This document shows positions 1 through 12,490 of a stretch of DNA of 64,000 bases, in pieces (the first letter of the stretch is position 1; every line of letters begins with the position of its first letter). The notes beneath the pieces were generated by a model that was given only the letters and a program-made list of their open reading frames with translations, had not been told where the DNA came from and searched no databases. This DNA comes from a virus: positions 34,985 to 98,984 of IMG/VR virus record IMGVR_UViG_3300033753_000334. One strand, 5' to 3'. Both the position numbers and the translations under genes were made by a program.

Positions 1-3000
1 GCGCGGATGGCTGGAATAGCTGGTCTGCTACTCTAAAAACTGCTGAAGGTAATACGGTTCGCATGTCCGGTGTGATTAATATGCTGACCGGTGAAATCTA
101 TCGTCAATCTGAATCAATCCGGGAAGCGCAAAGTCGATTGGAACGGTATGCACAGATGTCAGCGATAGCGTCACCATTTGCCAATTCAATGCGTGGGGGT
201 CGCGGATGGCAGAAGGATTATTCTGTACAAAATTACAACCCGGTAACAAGTGGGGGTGCAGAAATCGATCCGGGCGGAGATACAAAAACGTTCATGGGTT
301 CCATTGTTAATACTATGCGATACATGCTGTCCGGGATGCTCATGGGAACACCTACTATGATGTTCCACTCTGCATTCGAAGCAGCAAAAGAATTTGATTA
401 TCAGCTTGAGAAAGCGCGTCAAAACTTCGTTATCAAAGACCCGAAAATGTGGAATCAAGCGATAGAACAAGTGAGTATGAGGCATGGTGATGTGAAGGAT
501 AAGGAAGAATTAAACAAACTTGTGAAAGAAGAATCAAACCGCCTTATATACGAAATCAGGGATGGAGCAGTTGAGCGTCTGCAAAACATTGCGATCACGT
601 ATGCAGTTCCGACTGCCGAAATATCGAAGGCATGGCAGATTGCTTCGCGTATCACAAATTCAGATGATGAAGCAATCGCCTTTACGCGAGAAGTAGCCAA
701 AGTTCGGACATTGGAACAAGTAGACGTAGAAAAGGCAGCAATGGGATTCGAAGCGGTAAAATCACAGTGGGGTTTGAACGGCTATCAGTTGGAGAAGTTC
801 AACAATATGATGATAAAAGCCGCGAACATTTCTACAGCTACAGTTGAGGACTTGCTGGATTTCCAAAAGCGTGCCGGTTCGATTATGCGTAATAATTTAG
901 AGGGGGCAGGATTGAGCAAAAATGATGCGGCTGCATCTTCCATTGCATTTGCATCCTTGTTCAGTCAGGGTTCGGGCAGAAGTGGGGCAGAAGGTGGTAC
1001 ATTTGCGAAAGCTGTAACAGAACGCCCATACCAAAGTGCGCAGGCTGAATATTTCAAGAAGAAGGCCGAACAGTTAAACATTGAGGAATTGAACCCATAC
1101 AAGATAGATGAGTTTGGAAATGTACACAAGAGAGCCTTCACTGACTGGTTTGCTGCGCTATCGAAAGCAATGGTGATAGCGATGCCGACCGACCAGACAG
1201 AAATACTCAAGCAAGCGGCAGGTGTATACCATTCCGGTTCATCAGCGGCAATTCAGGCGATGATTACAGATATGCAGAAAAATGCTGCGGAGATTGCAAA
1301 AAGAGTCAATAACAATCGCAGATCACTAGGGCTAGAAGAATTCGACCCGAAGGCTGATATGGACAAAATAATGAAAGAGTATATTAAGAAAATTAGCGAA
1401 GCAACACCGGAAGAGTCCGAAGTCATGCTCGCTGGAATGTCCACTACATGGAATTTTCAAATTGATCGTGTCAAAGCGATGTGGGAGTCCTCTACATTCA
1501 GAGTGCTTGATGCTTTGAAACCGGAGTTTCAGGATCTGACGACCACATTAGGGGTTTTACTTCGTTCGATGCGAGAAAATGCTACAACATGGGCACAGGC
1601 AATCACAGGAATCACCAATATCGGTATGATGTTAGCAGTTGGATATGGCATGAATACACTCTATAACAAATGGAAGGGATTCGGTCAGCAAACGAGAATG
1701 GATGAAATTGACAGACAACGGGGCTTGTTGCAGGCAGAACGTGGAGCCATTAGTCTTCGCAAGGATTTGTTGGAAGATCGCCTTGCACAATTCCATAGTC
1801 AACATGGGAAAGAAATTGAACGTTTTAACGCGGTAAAAGATGAAAAAGTGTATAAATCGCGTACTGAGTTGATGCAGGCGGAGTGGGATGTGCAGCAAGC
1901 ACGAGACAACTATGAGCGTAGAAAAGGTACGCTCACACCATTCGAGGATGAACAGGAACGGGCGAAAATGTACAGCCTAGAGCGTACAGTGGCGGACAAA
2001 CGAAAAGTAGCGGAGGAACAGGAAAGCAAGCATGGACTTGATTCCAAAGTATTGGATGAATATAGCCGCCTGCAAACGGAAATGGCGCAAGTGGCGGTGC
2101 AGGCTACACGATTAAACCAACGCATGGATATGCTGGACAGAGGGGCGCAACAGTGGGGAGTGGATGTATCGCAATTACAAGTGAAGATGGACAGGTTAGA
2201 CAAAGAGTTTCGGAACGGCTCCATCAATATGGACATGTACAATCAAATGATGAAAGAAACAGCAAGAGCGGCAGGTGTGGCAGAGGATAATATCGAACGC
2301 TTGCAGAAGGAAATGGATAAACTTGAACGCGAATTTAGAGAAGGTGGAATGAGCGCACGAGTCTTCAATAAACAAGTCGATCATCTACGAAACATGCACT
2401 TAGCCGGAGATGCGGCACTTCCGGGCGGCGGGTACGGCGGGAGAGCAAATCAGGGCGGCGCAGATATGTTAAATATGGTTGCGCAAGCTTCCTTGTTCGG
2501 CGCACTCATGGGAGGGTTCAGTGACCGCTCCATATTCACACGCACAGGAGATTTATTCGCGCTAATGAAAGAAGCGGTACGAGAAGGCTCAGCGAGTGGA
2601 TTTATTCGTAGTTTTGGAAGTTTCTTCGGTCGTGGACTTGAACGAGATGAAAACGGGAAAATCGTGCGTGATGAAAATGGGCGCGTCCGTAAAAGACAAC
2701 TTGCCCCAGAGCCAGAAGGTGAGCAGGGAAAAGGTAGGGGGGCGATGAGTAGGCTTGCAACGAGTTCACCACGATTAGCAGGGGCTTTAGGTGGCGGATT
2801 GTCGATGCTTCTTAGGTTATTAGCGGGCGGAGTCGGTTTAGGGCTGTTGACTGGTGGATTCGCTGCATTTACCTATGGTATGGCAAACGATAATGAGAAG
2901 ACGCAGATTGATATTCAGCAATTCAAGGATATCGAGAAGAATGTCATGGCGATGAAAGAATCTTCCTCTTGGTTTATCAGAAGCGTAGTCGGTGTAAAGG

Positions 3001-4343
3001 AAATCATCGACACACTTACCGATGGAGTCAAGTCGATTCTAACAGATGGTTCTCTTGATGGATTCAGAAAGCATGGTAACGCATGGGTGATGGGTTGGAA
3101 CGCACAAACACCGAAAGAGTTTGAGCAGCAGATGGAAGCGCAGGCAGGAGCTCGTATCCGTGAGCAAATGGTTGAGAGGTACGGAGAAGCTGAGGTAAAG
3201 AGACGGGAACAAGTGTTTAGCGAGATGTATTTTAAAGAAGCGAAGACGCTGGAAGATTACAAGAAGATTAGTCATTCATTCCTCGAAAAAGACAGGCAAA
3301 AAACAGAGGAAGAAGAGAAAAAGCTAAAAGAATTCTCAGATAGAGCAAATGGTGTAATAACATATGAGACGATGCAGAGTATCCAAGAATTTCTTGAACC
3401 GATTAAGCGAAAGTTAGAAGTTGCCCGCTCGAATTCAGAAACAGGATACGAAGTTGCCAAGACAAAAGCATTGTTATCAGGGATGCGTGAAGATTCAGAG
3501 CAGGTACGGAAACTAACCAATGATTTCTTGAAAGCACAAATCGGATTGCTTCGAGCGTATACAGCACAAATAGATGAGAAAATGAAGGAAATGATTAATC
3601 GGGCAAAAGAAGAAGAGAAAAAAGGAAAGGTAGGGGAAGTTGAAAAAGTAATGAACAGCCCGGAGTTTATCGCACTCCAACTGGATAAGAACACCCACAA
3701 CGCTCAAATAGTACAAATGCAACTCCAAATGCATCAAACAGATTTATCGGCGATCAGCAGTATCACAACCAAACTGGAACGTGCAAAACGCATGGCACAA
3801 GCAGAAGGAAATATCCGTCGTTCGAACTTGCTACTCGGTGGCGCAAAAGAAGATTCAATGGCTGTCAAAATGGCAGATCGGCAGACGATGTTGAATATCA
3901 ACAATCAAATTGGTCAGGCGATTGTGGAACTACAAAAGCAACTGAACAGTGGCAAGTTTCAAGGTGAAGATCGTAATGATATTTTGCTTCAAATCAAGGA
4001 GCTGCAAGCAGAAAGCCGGGATAACCTTGTTAAAATCCGCGAAAAGATGACAAACAGTCTGTCCACGTACAACTTGCCATCCGGGATTCAAGGAATGACC
4101 TTCCAGGAAGCGATGCAGCGTAAAAATGACTACCGCTCGTATGCGATTACGCAGGGTGGTTTGACAATCAACGTCAACGTACCGGTACAGGGGAATTTTG
4201 GCGATGAGAAGGTAGCGAAGCAGCGCGGGCAGGCAACGGCACGGCAGGTGGCACAAGAAGTATCGAATATCCTGAGTCGTCAGGTGAAATCGTTTGGAGC
4301 GGGAGTGGGGTATTTCAGCCCGTTCGCCGTTGGAAGAACATAG
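1..4343 (+). CDS. Phage tail tape measure protein (5' truncated by window edge)
   Basis: >1426 aa, helical/coiled-coil and Ala/Gly-rich, with tape-measure-like segments (KAANISTATVEDL, SGAEGGT) and hydrophobic stretches; the frame is open upstream of ATG 63 to the window edge; followed by tail genes. Confidence 0.88.
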   Translation, partial: ADGWNSWSATLKTAEGNTVRMSGVINMLTGEIYRQSESIREAQSRLERYAQMSAIASPFANSMRGGRGWQKDYSVQNYNPVTSGGAEIDPGGDTKTFMGSIVNTMRYMLSGMLMGTPTMMFHSAFEAAKEFDYQLEKARQNFVIKDPKMWNQAIEQVSMRHGDVKDKEELNKLVKEESNRLIYEIRDGAVERLQNIAITYAVPTAEISKAWQIASRITNSDDEAIAFTREVAKVRTLEQVDVEKAAMGFEAVKSQWGLNGYQLEKFNNMMIKAANISTATVEDLLDFQKRAGSIMRNNLEGAGLSKNDAAASSIAFASLFSQGSGRSGAEGGTFAKAVTERPYQSAQAEYFKKKAEQLNIEELNPYKIDEFGNVHKRAFTDWFAALSKAMVIAMPTDQTEILKQAAGVYHSGSSAAIQAMITDMQKNAAEIAKRVNNNRRSLGLEEFDPKADMDKIMKEYIKKISEATPEESEVMLAGMSTTWNFQIDRVKAMWESSTFRVLDALKPEFQDLTTTLGVLLRSMRENATTWAQAITGITNIGMMLAVGYGMNTLYNKWKGFGQQTRMDEIDRQRGLLQAERGAISLRKDLLEDRLAQFHSQHGKEIERFNAVKDEKVYKSRTELMQAEWDVQQARDNYERRKGTLTPFEDEQERAKMYSLERTVADKRKVAEEQESKHGLDSKVLDEYSRLQTEMAQVAVQATRLNQRMDMLDRGAQQWGVDVSQLQVKMDRLDKEFRNGSINMDMYNQMMKETARAAGVAEDNIERLQKEMDKLEREFREGGMSARVFNKQVDHLRNMHLAGDAALPGGGYGGRANQGGADMLNMVAQASLFGALMGGFSDRSIFTRTGDLFALMKEAVREGSASGFIRSFGSFFGRGLERDENGKIVRDENGRVRKRQLAPEPEGEQGKGRGAMSRLATSSPRLAGALGGGLSMLLRLLAGGVGLGLLTGGFAAFTYGMANDNEKTQIDIQQFKDIEKNVMAMKESSSWFIRSVVGVKEIIDTLTDGVKSILTDGSLDGFRKHGNAWVMGWNAQTPKEFEQQMEAQAGARIREQMVERYGEAEVKRREQVFSEMYFKEAKTLEDYKKISHSFLEKDRQKTEEEEKKLKEFSDRANGVITYETMQSIQEFLEPIKRKLEVARSNSETGYEVAKTKALLSGMREDSEQVRKLTNDFLKAQIGLLRAYTAQIDEKMKEMINRAKEEEKKGKVGEVEKVMNSPEFIALQLDKNTHNAQIVQMQLQMHQTDLSAISSITTKLERAKRMAQAEGNIRRSNLLLGGAKEDSMAVKMADRQTMLNINNQIGQAIVELQKQLNSGKFQGEDRNDILLQIKELQAESRDNLVKIREKMTNSLSTYNLPSGIQGMTFQEAMQRKNDYRSYAITQGGLTINVNVPVQGNFGDEKVAKQRGQATARQVAQEVSNILSRQVKSFGAGVGYFSPFAVGRT

Positions 4344-4598: not shown

Positions 4599-4760
4599 AT
4601 GTGCGATAAGAACGGAAAGGGTGATGATGATATGATGGAAGTAAAAGAACAAAAAGTTCAAAACATGACTAAAGAAGAGCGCAAGCAGTATGCCCGTGAC
4701 CGTATTAAAAAAATCTGTGACCGTAATGATTCTGCATTAAGGAGATTGTCTAAAAATTGA
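4599..4760 (+). CDS. Small putative antitoxin for the Doc-family toxin (alternative start 4632)
   Basis: Not in the ORF track. AAAGGAG RBS; ends ...DRIKKICDRNDSALRRLSKN; its stop overlaps the TTG start of the doc-like gene; the C-terminus resembles Phd-type neutralising helices. Confidence 0.6.
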   Translation: MCDKNGKGDDDMMEVKEQKVQNMTKEERKQYARDRIKKICDRNDSALRRLSKN

Positions 4761-5173
4761 GTTTAGAAGAATTTGATATAGTTCCTTTAACTTTAGACGA
4801 TATATACGTAATTCATGAGGAAATGTTAGAACGTTACGGCGGGATTTCGGGGGCTAGAGAGCCAGGGTTAATAGAGTATATGACCGAAAAACCCTTTCAA
4901 GAAACTTTCGGCTATATTCTTTACCCTGGCTTATTTTTAAAAGCAGCTTGTTATATGGAGGGATTTGCTACTCATCAATATTTTAATGATGGTAATAAAA
5001 GAACAGCATATGGTTGTGCAGCTTTATTTTTAGATTATAACGGATTTACCATTATTGTTGATGATGAAGAGCTTTTCAATATGACTATGGACGTTGCTCT
5101 TAGAAGAGTTGACGTTAACGAACTTTCAAAGTGGCTTGAATCAGTTTCAGTTCCCTCAGAATACATAGAATAG
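4757..5173 (+). CDS. Doc/Fic-family (death-on-curing) toxin
   Basis: Doc-like layout (IHEEMLERYGG..G.R, LFLKAA) and motif THQYFNDGNKRTA. Confidence 0.88.
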   Translation: MSLEEFDIVPLTLDDIYVIHEEMLERYGGISGAREPGLIEYMTEKPFQETFGYILYPGLFLKAACYMEGFATHQYFNDGNKRTAYGCAALFLDYNGFTIIVDDEELFNMTMDVALRRVDVNELSKWLESVSVPSEYIE

Positions 5174-5285: not shown

Positions 5286-6328
5286 TTGAAGATTGTACAG
5301 TATGTTGGAATAACCATTATATGCCTGTGTTTGCTGATATTAGGTGGGGTGTATGTGCAGCAGACGTTTTTTCCGTTTGAGCGGGGCGCAAAGACGGTGG
5401 GTGTGGATAAACAACCTGAGCCGGAAGTGAAGAAAGATGAACAGGTGAAGGTGGCAGAAAAAGTAGCAGAGACAGAGCGTGAGGAGAAGAAGAAAGGCGC
5501 GATTGTTAGTGGGCAGTTTGCTGTAATAAACAATCCTTGCTTTGCAGCGACTTCAGAGGAAGCGCAAGACGAAATGTATGCGTACATTAGAGAGGGGAAT
5601 ACAGATGGAATTATGAGAATGATGGTCAGATACGATATTTTCAAACTTCCTAAAGGAACGGGAGTGAATGTTGTTAAGCGTGGCTTTACAACGGCGGTGG
5701 TGGAAGTTGTAAATACAGGTGAAGTCGGAATAGTCCCTGTGGAATTTTTGTCTCACCCTGATGATGAGCAGGTGGTTGGTGTTTCTAAAGGAGCAGATGT
5801 GACTAAACCATCAGCTTCTGCGTCTTCTCATCAAGCTAATAAGAACACTGGGAACAATCAAGTATCTTCTGTTGAACAATATTTCCGTGATTTGAAAACG
5901 TATGCAGGAAAAGGGCAGTTAAAGGGAGTAAGTGTAAAAATAGGAGATACACAAGATAAGGTAACAGCTAAATATAAAGAACCATTAGATACAACTTATT
6001 TTAACGGTGGGGATTGGCATGTGTACCCATCTTTCGTTATCATTTTCAACAAAAACGAAGAGGAAGAGACTAATAAAATAGTAGCGCTTGCGATTGACAA
6101 AGATAATATCAAGAAAAAACATGCTGATTTGACTTTTGCCCAAATCAAAAAATTCTTGGGAAACCATTTGAAGAAGCACACGACGAGGATAGTGGTGAAG
6201 GTGATAATGAGTGGCGCCTCGATTATAAAAGCGGTTCATATATACTTTCCTTTCGTGCTTATACTGAAAAAGGAAAAATAAAAGGGATTTACGTTTACAA
6301 ATATAATCCTAATAGCAGACCTGCTTAA
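5286..6328 (+). CDS. Membrane-anchored protein with a C-terminal YjgB/DUF4309-like domain; apparent frameshift near 6160
   Basis: N-terminal TM helix. The track ORF ends at 6281, but restoring one base at TTGGGAAACCA gives the family-like ...IKKFLGKPFEEAHDED...YKSGSYILSF... ending at TAA 6328. Confidence 0.55.
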
Positions 6329-6343
6329 AAATATATAGTAGAG

Positions 6344-7099
6344 GTGAGAATGATGAAAAAGTCAATTGGAAAACTTGTTTTGATTTTGTTGGTGGCAGTC
6401 GTATTATTTCCAGTTACAGTATCGAATGGGGTAGTGGAAGCAGGAACGGACCCAGCGCTTGTTGACAATATGAAAAAGAAGAGTCGTCAGTTTTTCGATA
6501 TGAAAGATGAGAATGGTGTGACGTATAACGTTTATATTTTCTCAAATAACGAAAAAAAGAAAGTGACAGGAAGAAGCGATATATGGGCAGGAGCAAGTGA
6601 AGGTGATATTTGGTATACAGGTGATTACCATATTGCTTTACGTAAGAAAGGAAGTAACGTTGTGCATATTCAACGATACGATGTAGTAGGATACGAGTAT
6701 AACTATACAAGAAAAATGATATACCTTCTTTCGTCCAAGAATATAGGGCAGCCAGATATTATTTCGTTCTCTACAACTGAGTGCTCGAATTGCAGAGAAG
6801 CAAGAATGTATTATATAAAAGATGGGAGAATAGAGAGAGTTAAAATAAAAACTGATGATGATGTGGATGAAACACTGTGGTATTCAGAAAAGCCGAAGGT
6901 AATCGGTAAAAACTTGTATCAATCAGTGGTTTTTACAAATACAGAAGACATCGGAGTTCATTTCAACACCTACTCGTTTAATCCAAAAACAGGTGTTATG
7001 ACACTGATTAAAACGAAGAGTTATATCAACGATCAACAAGAACTAGGCGATGCCATTTATAAAAAGTGGAAAGCGAGTCCTGCCTATGTAGTCAATTGA
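6344..7099 (+). CDS. Secreted protein of unknown function (moron)
   Basis: Signal peptide MKKSIGKLVLILLVAVVLFP...VEA; 251 aa. Confidence 0.7.
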   Translation: MRMMKKSIGKLVLILLVAVVLFPVTVSNGVVEAGTDPALVDNMKKKSRQFFDMKDENGVTYNVYIFSNNEKKKVTGRSDIWAGASEGDIWYTGDYHIALRKKGSNVVHIQRYDVVGYEYNYTRKMIYLLSSKNIGQPDIISFSTTECSNCREARMYYIKDGRIERVKIKTDDDVDETLWYSEKPKVIGKNLYQSVVFTNTEDIGVHFNTYSFNPKTGVMTLIKTKSYINDQQELGDAIYKKWKASPAYVVN

Positions 7100-7179
7100 A
7101 CTTTAACCAAAGAGGGCATCTGTCCTCTCTAATGTTTTCGCGTCGTATCATCACGGGTTGCGGCGGTTTCGTCGTTCTG

Positions 7180-7236
7180 AAAAAATGAGGATGAACTAAC
7201 GGAATGAGACGAAGTTCCGCCGGCTCATCCTCAATT
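7180..7236 (-). terminator. Long hairpin terminator for the XRE gene
   Basis: Minus strand TGAGGATGAGCCGGCGGAA...TTCCGTTAGTTCATCCTCA followed by TTTTTT directly after the stop. Confidence 0.65.
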
Positions 7237-7674
7237 TTATGCTTCTGATTTCGCGGCGGCCTCTTCTCTTTCGTTTCCATTCACTGACTTGGACGACGTT
7301 ACTGTCCTGTCTCGTTGGCGCACCTCACTTCCCTGGCCAAGCAACAAGCCTTCGATGATTCCCTCCACTTTGATTCGGTTCTCCCTGGTCAACCGCCGGA
7401 ATTTGGCCAGAAACTCGATGTCTGCGGGAGAAAAATCCCCTCCGATTGCTTGCTCTGATATACGTGCGGATTTTTCACCCTCCCCTCTTAAAATCCAATC
7501 AGCCGAAACGTCAAAAAAATCGGATAACGCGATCAAAGCGTCGGCTCCAGGTTTAACCTTGTCCAACTCCCAGTCACCAACATTCCCGCGCGAAACGCCG
7601 ATAGCCTCCGCCAAATCCTTCTGACTAATTTTTTTGGTAGCCCGAAGCTCTTTGATCCTTTGGCCAATACTCAT
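7237..7674 (-). CDS. XRE-family HTH repressor, divergent from the Cas12f operon
   Basis: MSIGQRIKELRATKKISQKDLAEAIGVSRGNVGDWE...P; GGAGGGTG RBS supports ATG 7674. Confidence 0.92.
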   Translation of the reverse strand: MSIGQRIKELRATKKISQKDLAEAIGVSRGNVGDWELDKVKPGADALIALSDFFDVSADWILRGEGEKSARISEQAIGGDFSPADIEFLAKFRRLTRENRIKVEGIIEGLLLGQGSEVRQRDRTVTSSKSVNGNEREEAAAKSEA

Positions 7675-7717
7675 TAGATCACCCTCCGCATTAATATTCG
7701 AGCAATACAAGAAAAAT

Positions 7718-7770
7718 ACACGTAAAATTACGCGTTTATTGTTGATTATACACTAATATACGTGTATTAT
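7718..7770 (+). promoter_or_regulatory. SigA-type promoter with two operator-like inverted repeats
   Basis: TTGATT (7742-7747)-17 nt-TATTAT (7765-7770); imperfect palindromes ACACGTAA-AA-TTACGCGT and ATACAC...GTGTAT, the second filling the -35/-10 spacer. Confidence 0.65.
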
Positions 7771-7835
7771 ATTGGTAGATAGAAAACCACATCACAAACC
7801 GATTCTACCATACCGCAATAGGTGCAAACAGTCGA

Positions 7836-7852
7836 ACCTTGACAACTGAATA
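7836..7852 (+). promoter_or_regulatory. boxA-like antitermination element
   Basis: ACCTTGACAACTGAATA resembles the Firmicutes rrn boxA (CTTTGAAAACT..A); lies in the 5' UTR of the Cas12f operon. Confidence 0.45.
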
Positions 7853-7889
7853 GCAAGATTCAGTGGATATTTGTGAGGAGGGAAATCGT

Positions 7890-8387
7890 ATGAACCAAAA
7901 AACTGGTTTGCTAGACGAGATGATGGCATTTTTGCTTCAACCTCATAGACTCACATACAAAGACGTATACACAGCACTTGATATACTCATTTTATGTCCG
8001 GAGTGGGAGCGAGAGCAAGCATGGGATATTTTGAAGGCGGTGACTCGTAGATACGAAATTGCCCCCGCTGATGATTGGCAGGAAGAAACAGGGGATTTTC
8101 TCGAAGATATGAAAATTATTTTGGACAGACCGGAACGACCGGATGATATTGAACTGTACGATGCCATTATTTCGCTAATGTTGTGCCAGGAATCGGAACG
8201 CGAGGAAGCGTGGAATATCATGCGAGCTATCGTGTATCGGTATGAGAACGAGCCAATCGTTTCGACACAAGATGTAGTTGATGTAGAAGAGTTGTTTCAA
8301 GAAATATTTCGTCTGATTAGCTTGGCAGAGCAGTTAAATCAAGAAGAAGTAGAATACTACGATGGCTATTCTGTGCTGGTGAGCTAA
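7890..8387 (+). CDS. Acidic two-repeat hypothetical protein, first gene of the Cas12f operon
   Basis: GAGGAGG RBS; internal duplication LCPEWEREQAWDILKAVTRRYE / LCQESEREEAWNIMRAIVYRYE; D/E-rich. Confidence 0.75.
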   Translation: MNQKTGLLDEMMAFLLQPHRLTYKDVYTALDILILCPEWEREQAWDILKAVTRRYEIAPADDWQEETGDFLEDMKIILDRPERPDDIELYDAIISLMLCQESEREEAWNIMRAIVYRYENEPIVSTQDVVDVEELFQEIFRLISLAEQLNQEEVEYYDGYSVLVS

Positions 8388-8413
8388 ACACAGGGCAGGA
8401 GTTGTTTGGGCTG

Positions 8414-8580
8414 ATTCGGCAGCCTCAAGTCGAGAAGTGCGCTAGAAAGGATAGCGCAACACTCGATAAGGTACACGCTTATGCGTGGGAAACGTCATAC
8501 ATGAAAACCGTATGACCACCATCGTCGGTCAGGAATGATGTGAAAGTATCAGGAGAGCGACGAATACAAAGAGCAGGAAT
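8414..8580 (+). ncRNA. Cas12f1 tracrRNA, copy 1
   Basis: Same layout as the AsCas12f1 tracrRNA as I recall it (5' ATTCG, CGAGAAGTGC stem, CTCG.TAAGGTA); anti-repeat ATACAAAGAGCAGGAAT (8564-8580) complementary to the array 1 repeat. Confidence 0.85.
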
Positions 8581-8664
8581 ATCACAGTTTCTGCAAGATA
8601 TGAGCAGAAAAGTGCAAGACATGCTGATGACCTGAAAATATAGAGGTTTCAAGGCTTCGCATGA

Positions 8665-8892
8665 GTTTCTGCTCGATGTAACTGGAGTGCGAAGTTGGCT
8701 CTTATCTTCCTGCCCGAGCAACAGTCCTTCGTTTCTGCTCGATGTAACTGGAGTGCGAAGATAATTTGATCGAGCTGTGCTTTTTCATCCAGCTTTGTTT
8801 CTGCTCGATGTAACTGGAGTGCGAAGGTAAGTAAGGTCGGCGATAATGGAAGGGAGAGCAGTGTTTCTGCTCAATGTAGCTGGGGTGCGAAG
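8665..8892 (+). CRISPR. CRISPR mini-array 1: 4 repeats, 3 spacers
   Basis: 30-nt repeat GTTTCTGCTCGATGTAACTGGAGTGCGAAG at 8665, 8731 and 8797, with a degenerate copy at 8863; three 36-nt spacers (8695-8730, 8761-8796, 8827-8862). Confidence 0.96.
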
Positions 8893-8924
8893 TTCAATGC
8901 AGCCAAAACAAGGGAGGCAAGAAA

Positions 8925-10193
8925 ATGAAACACACGAAAGTCATGCGCTATCAAATTATCAAACCAATCAACGACACGTGGGAAACGTTGGGACATGTTC
9001 TGCGAGAAATCCAGCGAGAGACACGCGCGGCGCTAAACAAGACTATTCAACTCGCTTGGGAATGGCAGGGATTCAGGGCAGAATATAAGCAACGTTATGA
9101 AGAATATCCAAAAACAAAAGATCATCTTGGATATTCAGCGCTGCATGGCTATGCCTACAATCGCCTGAAAGATGAGTTCTACCGAATGAACACAGCTAAC
9201 CTATCCCAGACGGTTAAACGTGCGGCAGACAAGTGGAAATCCGACCTAAAAGACGTTATGCGCGGCGACAAGTCAATCGCCAGCTTTAAAAAAGATTGTC
9301 CGATTGATATCGTGTCCCAGGCGCTTAGAATTCGCAAAGATGGTAGTGACTATATTCTGACACTAAGCCTAGTGAGCATTAAATACAGAAAGGAACTGGA
9401 ACGCAAGCAATCATCATTTGATGTTCTGATAAGTGCAAATGATAAAACACAGCGTGATATTCTTGACAGGCTCATCGCTGGAGAATACAAGCTTGGAGCA
9501 TCACAATTGCTCTATCACAAGAAAAAATGGTTCGTTAATGTGAACTACCAGTTTGAGAAAGAAGAAACAGCATTCGACCAGGATAACATCATGGGTGTTG
9601 ACCTGGGGATCGTCTATCCGGTATACATGGCGTTCAATAACTCGTTACATCGGTATAAAATAGAAGGTGGGGAGATTGAACGGTTCCGAGCACAAGTAGA
9701 ACGTCGGAAGAAACAATTACTTCAGCAAGCCAAATACTGCGGCGAGGGGCGGCGTGGTCACGGAACGAAAACACGTATCCAGCCAATTGAAGTTGTCTCA
9801 GACAAAGTAGCCAATTTTCGAGATACAGTGAATCACCGATACTCACGCTATGTTGTGGATATGGCTATCAAGCATCGTTGCGGTACAATTCAGATGGAAG
9901 ACTTGACTGGTATTGCAACAGACAATACTTTTTTGAAAAGTTGGCCGTACTATGATCTGCAACAGAAAATAGAATACAAGGCTCATGAAGCAGGTATACA
10001 AGTTGTCTATATCAAGCCTGATTATACAAGCCAACGTTGCTCGAAATGCGGTCATATTGAACGCGATAATCGAACAGAACAGGCGACATTTGAATGTAAG
10101 TCATGTGGCTTTAAGACGAATGCTGATTTTAATGCAGCACGAAACATTGCCACAAAGGATATTGAGAAGATTATCGCAGAAACATTGAAATAA
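8925..10193 (+). CDS. cas12f1: Type V-F CRISPR effector Cas12f1 (compact, TnpB-derived RuvC nuclease)
   Basis: 422 aa, collinear with AsCas12f1 as I recall it (ALNKTIQLAWEW, NLSQTVKRA, YKIEGGEIERFR, ANFRDTVNHRYSRY); RuvC residues GVDLG / QMEDL / NADFNAARNI and Zn finger CSKC..CKSC intact; adjacent arrays and tracrRNAs. Confidence 0.94.
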   Translation: MKHTKVMRYQIIKPINDTWETLGHVLREIQRETRAALNKTIQLAWEWQGFRAEYKQRYEEYPKTKDHLGYSALHGYAYNRLKDEFYRMNTANLSQTVKRAADKWKSDLKDVMRGDKSIASFKKDCPIDIVSQALRIRKDGSDYILTLSLVSIKYRKELERKQSSFDVLISANDKTQRDILDRLIAGEYKLGASQLLYHKKKWFVNVNYQFEKEETAFDQDNIMGVDLGIVYPVYMAFNNSLHRYKIEGGEIERFRAQVERRKKQLLQQAKYCGEGRRGHGTKTRIQPIEVVSDKVANFRDTVNHRYSRYVVDMAIKHRCGTIQMEDLTGIATDNTFLKSWPYYDLQQKIEYKAHEAGIQVVYIKPDYTSQRCSKCGHIERDNRTEQATFECKSCGFKTNADFNAARNIATKDIEKIIAETLK

Positions 10194-10219
10194 TGAGCTG
10201 TTTAAAAATTTTCGGGGCG

Positions 10220-10387
10220 ATTCGGCGTCCTTGAGTCGAGAAGTGCTTTGGAAAGTACAAAGTGGCACTCGATAAGGTACACGCTTATGCGTGGGAAACG
10301 CTATGCATGAAAACCGCATAGCCACCATCGTCGACCGATAGTAGCGTCAAAACTACTGAGGATCGACGACATACAGAACGCAGGAAT
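10220..10387 (+). ncRNA. Cas12f1 tracrRNA, copy 2
   Basis: Paralog of 8414-8580: identical 35-nt block (10266-10300 = 8460-8494), compensatory changes in stems, anti-repeat CATACAGAACGCAGGAAT (10370-10387) complementary to the array 2 repeat. Confidence 0.85.
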
Positions 10388-10470
10388 GACGGTAGGTTTT
10401 CGCATTCAAGCAGAGATATCTTTCTGAATATAAGAAGCGAGAAAAGTAGTAATATCAAGCTACTTCGTGT

Positions 10471-10568
10471 TTTTCTGCGAAATGTATATGGAATGCGAAG
10501 GAGAACAAGGTAGAACGATAAGTCTTGAGGAAGCCAAGTTTTCTGCGGAATGTATATGGAATGCGAAG
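10471..10568 (+). CRISPR. CRISPR mini-array 2: 2 repeats, 1 spacer, different repeat type
   Basis: TTTTCTGCG(A/G)AATGTATATGGAATGCGAAG at 10471-10500 and 10539-10568; spacer 10501-10538; shares the TTTCTGC and TGCGAAG ends with array 1. Confidence 0.88.
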
Positions 10569-10578
10569 AGGTGATCGC

Positions 10579-11187
10579 ATGTCACAGGTTAAAGTTTTTG
10601 ACAATGCTAACGAACCACACAAACGAAAACTTTTCTACGCCACAGGTATCGCAGGGGCGGAATGGAAAGAAGTCCCGGCACGTATCATCGAGCCATACTC
10701 TCCACCGACTCCATCCTTGCGTGTCAAAGAAAACAAAGTACTGAACGCTCCATCAGATTTAGTCGGCAGTACCACAGCAAGCTATCGAATGAAAGCGCGG
10801 CTACTATTCCAGACGCGGCAAGATTTGACTGCATACCTTGTTTATATCAATTATCCGCACAAGTTTTATGATGAGCGCGGCGTGATTTATATTGGCTCAG
10901 TCGATGACCACATTCCAAGTGTTCACGAAGGGTTGCAGCGTTACACAGTCGAAATTTCCATGCTTATGACAAGGAAAGACCAGTATGATAAGAAGTACGA
11001 GAATCCATTTTCTGATACGAATCCTGATGCATGGTATTACAAAGATTTACTGGAGCTTATTGACATGGGCGTTATCGCTGGAAAAACAGATACAACATTC
11101 CGGCCTAACGACTACATTTCTCGTGCCGAGTTTGCCGCGCTGTTGAACAGGATACGCAGGCTTGCTGAGTTAACAATTCGGACATAG
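10579..11187 (+). CDS. Tail protein (distal-tail position) with a C-terminal SLH domain
   Basis: Likely start is ATG 10579 (GAGGTG RBS), not 10525 inside the array; FSDTNPDAWY...GVIAG..TFRPNDYISRAEFAALL is an SLH motif. Confidence 0.75.
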   Translation: MSQVKVFDNANEPHKRKLFYATGIAGAEWKEVPARIIEPYSPPTPSLRVKENKVLNAPSDLVGSTTASYRMKARLLFQTRQDLTAYLVYINYPHKFYDERGVIYIGSVDDHIPSVHEGLQRYTVEISMLMTRKDQYDKKYENPFSDTNPDAWYYKDLLELIDMGVIAGKTDTTFRPNDYISRAEFAALLNRIRRLAELTIRT

Positions 11188-11200
11188 AGGGGGCGAAAGT

Positions 11201-12490
11201 GTGACAGTTAGAGGTTTTGTTGACGTAACCCCGGACAAATGGTTTTACGACGATGTCATGGACTGTGCGAATTACTTGCTGGAAGATGACTCGCCGTTGA
11301 TAGTGGGGATTCCGTATTGTTCATTCGAAGCTGGTAAGCCAAATCATACACAGGAATTCAAAGGGAATGGACAGTCAGTGTTTACACTAGACAAAGCATT
11401 AACAATAACGCCGGATAACCCATTATTCGTATATATTGACGGTGTGCAGACGTTCTACAAGGAAGCCAAAATCGAGGGGAGCAAAACGAAAGTAACGCTC
11501 TATTCTCCTGTTACCAATGCACAATCGATTTTGTTTAAATATATCGGTTCCCCGCGAATGAAACCGGACAAAAAACCATACGGTGATTGTGGGTCGGTTG
11601 AATACCCACATTATCAATTACAGTTCGGCAAAGAGGCAGATAAATCGATTTATCAGTACGTTTATAATCTCGATGGAAGGGGCTTCAGTGAAGTTGTATC
11701 ATGCTTCGGAACACAGTTGAAACGAATCCGTATTTCAGAGGGTGAGTGGTACCTTTCCAATCACAATGAACTGCTGGCGAAGTATATAGGTGATAAACCA
11801 AACCTCTACACTATAACACCGGGCGGTATTGTCTACTGTTCGTTCAACGTGGCTAATATGAAATGCAAAATCCGTTATCAGATGAAAGTGAGAGGGATTC
11901 TTGTAACGACTGGTGGCGAGTTTATTCCCGCATCTCAAAAAGTGAAGTATCTGGACCGTTTCTTCCCAGATGGGCAGTTGACGCGGGCAGAAGGTTTTTC
12001 AATCATTGACAGATTGCGACGTTCTTATTATCAGCGTTTTACTGACGCAGAGCCACCTGGTGCGACGATAGATGATACTTTCGTCGTTGAAGATTGTCAG
12101 GACACGTTTGTAACTTCGTCACGCTTCAGGATCGGAGAACCGTTGGAAGTGAAAGTGAATGGTTTTTTAAAAACGTTGGGAATTGATTATATTCAGGTTA
12201 ATGACCATGCTGTTCAGTTTAAGTATTTGCTTCCAGCAGGAGCTGTTGTCACTATTAAACGAATAAAGAAGGAAAGTCATTTTGCGGATAGAGATTCACT
12301 AGGAGCATGGTACAAGGATGCGGTTATCTCAATGGAAAATGAACGAACGAGAGCAGGAGAACCGCTGATCGAAGGTGTTTTAAGTGGAGGACAGTTGTAT
12401 TTTGACGGAGAATCCTATATGACTCGTGCCCAAGCAATAGTGCTGCTCAACAGGTTCAGAAAATGGGCAATCGAAACGTTCAAGGGTTAG
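11201..12490 (+). CDS. SLH-domain-containing virion protein
   Basis: FVDVTPDKWF, FFPDGQLTRAE, and FAD...WYKDAV...FDGESYMTRAQAIVLLNR; beta-rich inserts. Confidence 0.7.
   Translation: MTVRGFVDVTPDKWFYDDVMDCANYLLEDDSPLIVGIPYCSFEAGKPNHTQEFKGNGQSVFTLDKALTITPDNPLFVYIDGVQTFYKEAKIEGSKTKVTLYSPVTNAQSILFKYIGSPRMKPDKKPYGDCGSVEYPHYQLQFGKEADKSIYQYVYNLDGRGFSEVVSCFGTQLKRIRISEGEWYLSNHNELLAKYIGDKPNLYTITPGGIVYCSFNVANMKCKIRYQMKVRGILVTTGGEFIPASQKVKYLDRFFPDGQLTRAEGFSIIDRLRRSYYQRFTDAEPPGATIDDTFVVEDCQDTFVTSSRFRIGEPLEVKVNGFLKTLGIDYIQVNDHAVQFKYLLPAGAVVTIKRIKKESHFADRDSLGAWYKDAVISMENERTRAGEPLIEGVLSGGQLYFDGESYMTRAQAIVLLNRFRKWAIETFKG

Follow-up and report, generated by a model that had tools for sequence, protein, structure and literature searches.

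A temperate phage that carries its own Cas12f nuclease together with CRISPR arrays raises the question of where its spacers come from and against whom they are directed. We asked this of spacer 1, the leader-proximal spacer of array A in a 98,984-bp provirus record from IMG/VR, of which bases 34985-98984 were analysed as a stretch of 64,000 nucleotides (the window). The reverse complement of this spacer contains no stop codon and encodes the peptide EGLLLGQEDKSQ, which resembles a part of the XRE-family protein encoded in the same accessory island. From this resemblance, an earlier note had proposed that the spacer came from a sister element with a homologous XRE gene, possibly within the same XRE-Cas12f cassette, and that it serves competition between related phages by aiming at a variable region, thereby sparing self.

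The array is carried by a virus genome, as the record is an IMG/VR provirus and genes for a tape measure, a Doc-like toxin and an M23 tail lysin surround the island. The island lies between the tape-measure gene and the distal tail-region genes, which encode an SLH-domain protein, a 429-aa protein and an M23 peptidase of 1029 aa. It comprises, in this order, the Doc/Fic toxin gene, two ORFs, the XRE gene, an acidic ORF (ORF174), tracrRNA-like region A, array A, cas12f, tracrRNA-like region B and array B (Table 1). The XRE gene is divergent from ORF174 and the CRISPR-Cas12f genes, and ORF174, which has no Pfam or PHROG match, is the first gene 3' of the divergent intergenic region. Regulation of the cassette by the XRE protein is plausible from this arrangement of genes. 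No Cas1 or Cas2 gene was found in the 99-kb provirus record. Coming from the tape measure, the Doc/Fic toxin gene is the island's first module, and a second, non-identical copy of the cassette from JGI metagenomes (L002) has other genes at this place. In the region 4599-5173 of the window, a 53-codon ORF precedes the toxin gene and is a candidate antitoxin.

Table 1. Features of the accessory island and sites compared with spacers (positions in the window).
Feature	Position	Strand	Remarks
Tape-measure gene	63-4343		PHROG tape-measure families
Self site for spacer 2, in tape-measure gene	1337-1372	-	19/36 identity; PAM-equivalent 1373-1376 is TTTC
Doc/Fic toxin gene	4757-5173		PF02661; PHROG Doc-like toxin
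Two ORFs	5286-6281, 6344-7099		No Pfam or PHROG match
XRE-family gene	7237-7674	-	145 aa; HTH_3 N-terminal domain, E=4e-14
XRE site resembling spacer 1	7318-7353	-	Reads EGLLLGQGSEVR; 23/36 identity
Acidic ORF174	7863-8387	+	174 aa from GTG; ATG at ~7890
tracrRNA-like region A, conserved core	8405-8527	+	
CRISPR array A	8665-8892	+	Four 30-nt repeats (last degenerate), three 36-nt spacers
Array A spacers	8695-8730, 8761-8796, 8827-8862	+	
Spacer 1 of array A	8695-8730	+	36 nt, leader-proximal; reverse complement encodes EGLLLGQEDKSQ
Spacer 2 of array A	8761-8796	+	Perfect 36/36 protospacer with 5' TTTA in non-array context, contigs of runs X3 and X4
cas12f1	8925-10193	+	422 aa; close AsCas12f1 relative
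tracrRNA-like region B, conserved core	10211-10333	+	
Mini-array B	10471-10568	+	Two repeats and one spacer
SLH-domain tail-region gene	from 10579		
SLH gene start resembling the X4 sister spacer	10584-10618	-	25/35 identity, in frame; 8/11 residues

The Cas12f protein aligned over its full length with the structures of AsCas12f1 (8J12, 7WJU and 8DZJ; E~1e-153) and contains the PF07282 domain (E=1e-24), with the RuvC aspartate and the zinc-finger cysteines (CxxC pairs) aligned. AsCas12f1 recognizes the PAM 5'-NTTR, uses a guide of 20 nt and contacts the PAM through H72, Y76, S92 and K96 (10.1101/2023.07.03.547593). The equivalents of these four residues are all conserved in the prophage protein, as seen in the alignment with 7WJU, and by analogy this orthologue would be expected to use a crRNA of similar length and a similar PAM. 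A cluster mate of the protein, at least 90% identical, is annotated in Aneurinibacillus danicus, and the host of the prophage is therefore probably a member of the Bacillota, Aneurinibacillus.

Array A lies 33 nt upstream of cas12f on the same strand, with a repeat spacing of 66 nt and repeats that end in GCGAAG beside the spacer when read on the cas12f strand. Since the degenerate repeat is the fourth (8863-8892), and related viral Cas12f arrays likewise have their degenerate repeat at the end away from the first repeat, spacer 1 is leader-proximal, as had been noted. The repeats of array B are 66% identical to repeat A in the repeat-finding register. The second repeat of array B abuts the ribosome-binding site and the ATG (10579) of the SLH-domain gene, within 10539-10581. 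Each array is preceded by its own tracrRNA-like region of ~300 nt (8388-8694 for A and 10194-10500 for B) and has its own repeat variant, with a single cas12f gene between the two sets. The two regions are 81% identical, with compensatory differences in the stems, and the duplexes between repeats and tracrRNA-like regions are predicted to have energies of -20 to -24 kcal/mol. In related viral Cas12f loci the array may lie upstream or downstream, and one of them (L011) has two different arrays upstream. As judged from its sequence, the locus is a prophage-borne type V-F system with an AsCas12f1-like effector, which would be expected to cleave double-stranded DNA.

We then compared spacer 1, which lies directly 3' of a 30-nt repeat, with the resident XRE gene. 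The alignment was found as described in the earlier note. In the ungapped register, 17 of the 21 PAM-distal nucleotides match, and all four differences are synonymous (GGA/GGC, CTG/TTG, CTC/CTT and GGG/GGC). Only 6 of the 15 PAM-proximal nucleotides match, and a TTG at 7315-7317 (+ strand) adjoins the aligned site. This TTG was not retained as evidence on the PAM of the donor, as the sequence next to the self site carries no information on the donor. Over the guide part of the spacer, namely its first 20 nt, the resident XRE gene matches at 10 positions.

The C-terminal part of the XRE protein provided a wider frame for this comparison. Following the N-terminal HTH_3 domain come a C-terminal helix, KVEGIIEGLLLGQ, and a variable linker, with the conserved tail ..EEAAA.SEA behind it. 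An exhaustive HMMER search with the C-terminal 70 residues against 1.84 billion representatives gave eight proteins at E<=0.001. In this small family, the C-terminal part is made up of a helix of the form ..K(V/I)EG(I/M)(I/V)EG(L/I)L.., a linker that is hydrophilic and variable, and the tail ..NG.EEAA..SE.A; at least three different types of HTH are found attached to it. The heptapeptide EGLLLGQ, identical to the spacer peptide at 7/7 residues, occurs in three separate clusters (P0001, P0008 and P0044), and near variants of it are found in P0046, P0048 and the provirus gene L044; the variable hydrophilic linker then follows the helix end. The conserved tail behind the linker, ..S.S.NG.(R)EEAA..SE.A (7237-7300 in the resident gene), is present regardless of the HTH type; a degron or a protease site is a possible role for it.

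L044 was the sole further IMG/VR gene with the helix motif, in a search whose motif ended in the first two codons (E, G) of the aligned 36 nt. At the corresponding position L044 encodes EGMLLGQGGASQ, which agrees with spacer 1, in register, at 25/36 nucleotides and 8/12 residues, 12 residues being too few for a formal family assignment. In the linker codons the agreement is 10/15 and includes AGCCAA (SQ), for which the binomial p is ~0.001-0.004 if a single pre-specified site is considered. Apart from the L044 site and the arrays themselves, no place with at least 24/36 identity was found in ~300 kb of retrieved loci and the whole provirus.

A search for the protospacer itself gave no target for spacer 1. 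In IMG/VR, none was found with the exact 36-mer, with both 20-nt halves, with a third-position-N pattern or with a back-translation of EGLLLGQEDKSQ, and in GTDB (one genome per species) there was none with the third-position-N pattern or the back-translation of the 12 residues. The back-translation had a single hit in the JGI metagenomes, which was the copy of spacer 1 in the array of L002 and not a target. A near-perfect blastn hit with a 5' TTR had been expected; the GenBank phages and PLSDB plasmids yielded only chance matches of 18-23 nt in unrelated hosts. Contigs of the metagenome runs X3-X5 also held no protospacer for spacer 1. Spacers 2 and 3 of array A and the spacer of array B had no match in GenBank phages.

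The sister copies of the cassette in L002, X3 and X4 all keep the resident XRE allele, with one synonymous change in the aligned site in L002 and 7 differences in 756 nt in X4, so that spacer 1 would miss them; this speaks against the same XRE-Cas12f cassette as the donor. In addition, this XRE gene was found beside Cas12f in 0 of 10 related viral Cas12f loci, neither Cas12f nor ORF174 was found beside the XRE homologue in any of 32 viral XRE-homologue loci, and the L044 provirus has no Cas12f. Four synonymous changes in seven conserved codons indicate that the donor would be a distant member of the family. An origin in the XRE family is the most likely one, in a distant member and not in a sister allele. 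The repeat-proximal part of the spacer corresponds to the hypervariable linker of the family, and with the guide part placed there the resident XRE gene would be spared, in agreement with the proposal that a variable region is aimed at.

In contrast to spacer 1, spacer 2 led to a target. We compared Logan contigs of three metagenomes with positions 7100-10650 of the window, and found that runs X3 and X4, which contain the perfect protospacer of spacer 2, also hold the Cas12f cassette or a sister of it. The X4 contig with the target is 4399 bp long and shows 0 differences from the spacer, and the flanks of the target are not repeats. The 31 residues encoded by a stretch of 96 nt at the target share 58% identity with the tape measure of the phage itself, in the same frame (tblastx E=2.6e-9). 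The TTTA beside this one protospacer is a natural 5' T-rich PAM and fits NTTR; spacer 2 thus provides a natural pair of PAM and target that can be tested directly. The carrier's own sites have diverged for both spacers, to 10/20 in the guide part for spacer 1, and to 19/36 with TTTC in place of TTTA for spacer 2. The earlier suggestion, in its general form of phage-borne spacers directed at relatives where self is different, holds for spacer 2, whose perfect target was found in a co-occurring element; for spacer 1, no protospacer could be added to it. In X4, the target contig and the sister cassette have the same depth (~960 and 956-980, respectively), and the target may therefore sit within the sister phage itself.

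Run X4 is a hot-spring metagenome, and its sister element differs from the window at 46 of ~870 nt in the tracrRNA-like region and at 95 of ~1640 nt in cas12f (~5-6%). Its array A has one spacer, of 35 nt, which is different from those of the window. The best match of this spacer in the whole record is the start of the SLH gene, where QVRLFDTANEP is aligned with QVKVFDNANEP; the nucleotide identity is 25/35 and there is no NTTR alongside. The sister also has a different spacer in array B, and its ORF174 lacks 9 nt at 8318, while its XRE gene is nearly identical. The arrays thus change faster than the remaining island, though the phage is without Cas1 and Cas2. All three traceable spacers map to homologues of the carrier's own genes (at 1337-1372, 7318-7353 and 10584-10618), and in this 99-kb record those genes lie no more than ~7.5 kb from the array. 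Such a clustered ancestry may reflect mosaic variable genes or a homing of the island that is directed by guides.

Taken together, we favour the reading, with a probability of about 0.7, that spacer 1 is a genuine crRNA spacer, that it came from, and is aimed at, a distant XRE-family gene carried by a different temperate phage or mobile element, and that array A works as a means of heterotypic exclusion against related phages. The prophage would express Cas12f together with the crRNAs of array A. With its first ~20 nt as guide 1, spacer 1 would pair with the hypervariable linker codons in the XRE-family gene of a rival, with an NTTR PAM adjoining, and guide 2 would pair with the tape-measure allele of the rival. 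Rival genomes would be cut on entry, and the resident alleles would be immune through their PAM-proximal differences. The resemblance over seven residues would then represent the conserved helix end, carried in the PAM-distal part of the spacer only. For spacer 1, targeting of a hypervariable region within a family of repressor-like genes is thus probable but unproven.

The similarity to the XRE gene could also be fortuitous, with spacer 1 aimed at an unrelated, unsampled gene and the Leu/Gly-rich heptapeptide in the XRE protein a coincidence. At the nucleotide level the match is indeed no better than chance. Equal matches occur in the window at 12411 (17/21) and 23884 (23/36), and in ~15% of shuffles the spacer finds a 17/21 site somewhere in the window. 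For ungapped BLOSUM62, the best score of 34 was reached by 32% of shuffled spacers and exceeded by the match at 12411 (37), which lies outside the frame of its gene, and a tblastn search of the XRE protein against the provirus found the spacer 1 region only at E=1.2. Further, the linker peptide EDKSQ is absent from all ~55 family proteins retrieved. On the other hand, exact identity over seven residues in the true frame of a real gene is unusual, as just 27 of 5000 shuffles (0.54%) reached 7 or more identical residues against ORF-like segments anywhere in the 99-kb provirus, and EDKSQ resembles the family linkers ELRSQ and DNYSQ at p=0.03-0.08 against composition-matched 5-mers, both being statistics in favour of homology that were picked after the match was seen. 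L044 adds an independent in-register agreement in the linker codons. Moreover, homologues of genes carried by the phage itself are demonstrably the source of two other spacers in the array lineage, so that homology of spacer 1 has a higher prior. We therefore regard coincidence as unlikely, and descent of spacer 1 from a member of the protein family of the adjacent XRE as the most likely origin.

A different selective role, compatible with exclusion, would be guide-directed homing or marker exclusion, in which cuts in a rival's alleles of the island-flanking tape-measure, XRE and SLH genes are repaired from the resident phage, and the island is copied into the rival along with linked alleles. 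Copying by cut and repair has been described for TnpB and for phage homing endonucleases, and Cas12f descends from TnpB, so that a homing role, if true, would be a CRISPR-era continuation of TnpB homing. The proximity of the three traceable sites to the array is in keeping with this, and two of them came from unbiased searches of the whole record. However, the sample is small and was examined post hoc, mosaic variable genes that separate sister phages would give the same clustering, and no cassette-free rival allele was seen. We consider such a role improbable, and still more so a remnant of self-targeting or autoregulation, in which the spacer would have been taken from the phage's own XRE gene that later mutated to escape, or the partial match would allow Cas12f to bind there and regulate that gene. 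The spacer does adjoin the gene, and the GTTG beside the self site is compatible with NTTR. Yet 9 of the 15 PAM-proximal positions differ and a different peptide is encoded, which is more than a few escape mutations would produce, and the conserved part already contains the four synonymous differences. Type V effectors require PAM-proximal pairing, and X3, X4 and L002 retain the same non-matching allele. Self-targeting followed by escape was rejected, given the too large difference in the linker, and the self-directed reading as a whole is very improbable.

Exclusion of related phages can be compared with what is known of similar systems. This Cas12f and AsCas12f1 are alike in length (422 aa), full-length alignment and PAM residues, and TTTA fits NTTR; the present locus also has a tracrRNA-like region next to an array whose repeats measure 30 nt and whose spacers measure 36 nt. 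Unlike the AsCas12f1 system, the present locus lies in the accessory island of a prophage, has two different sets of tracrRNA-like region and array flanking the effector gene, and has natural targets that can be traced. To our knowledge, traced natural targets have not been documented for AsCas12f1, and we are aware of few reports on natural targets for the miniature Cas12f nucleases used in genome editing. The presence of an AsCas12f1 relative in a temperate phage, along with a spacer 2 target in the tape measure of a related element, suggests that the native role of this Cas12f system is the exclusion of one phage by another.

The prophage Cas12f array appears to be a case of CRISPR warfare between phages, of a kind already known. 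Virus-borne mini-CRISPR arrays have been described in interviral conflicts (Medvedeva et al. 2019, PMC6858448) and their role has been modelled (PMC7099407). Like array A, the archaeal mini-arrays are short, lie in a viral genome and have spacers against related viruses at sites where the carrier differs, resulting in heterotypic superinfection exclusion (PMC6858448). Spacer 2, with its perfect target in a co-occurring element, follows the same logic. The archaeal arrays are without cas genes and use the systems of the host (PMC6858448), whereas this phage of a putative Bacillota host has its own effector and tracrRNA-like regions. The 'Cas12 hacker' (10.1101/2025.01.20.633832) is likewise a phage-borne compact type V effector with an array, presumably degrading the nucleic acids of rivals, and the Thermus phage Cas12r (10.64898/2026.04.20.719267) is likewise a miniature Cas12 carried by a phage and presumably directed against rivals. 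Both differ from the present system in effector subtype and host, and the present system is known from computation alone. Outside the window, at 475-1119 of the provirus record, a second, distant TnpB/Cas12f-like stretch was detected by tblastn with Cas12f (20% identity, E=5e-10).
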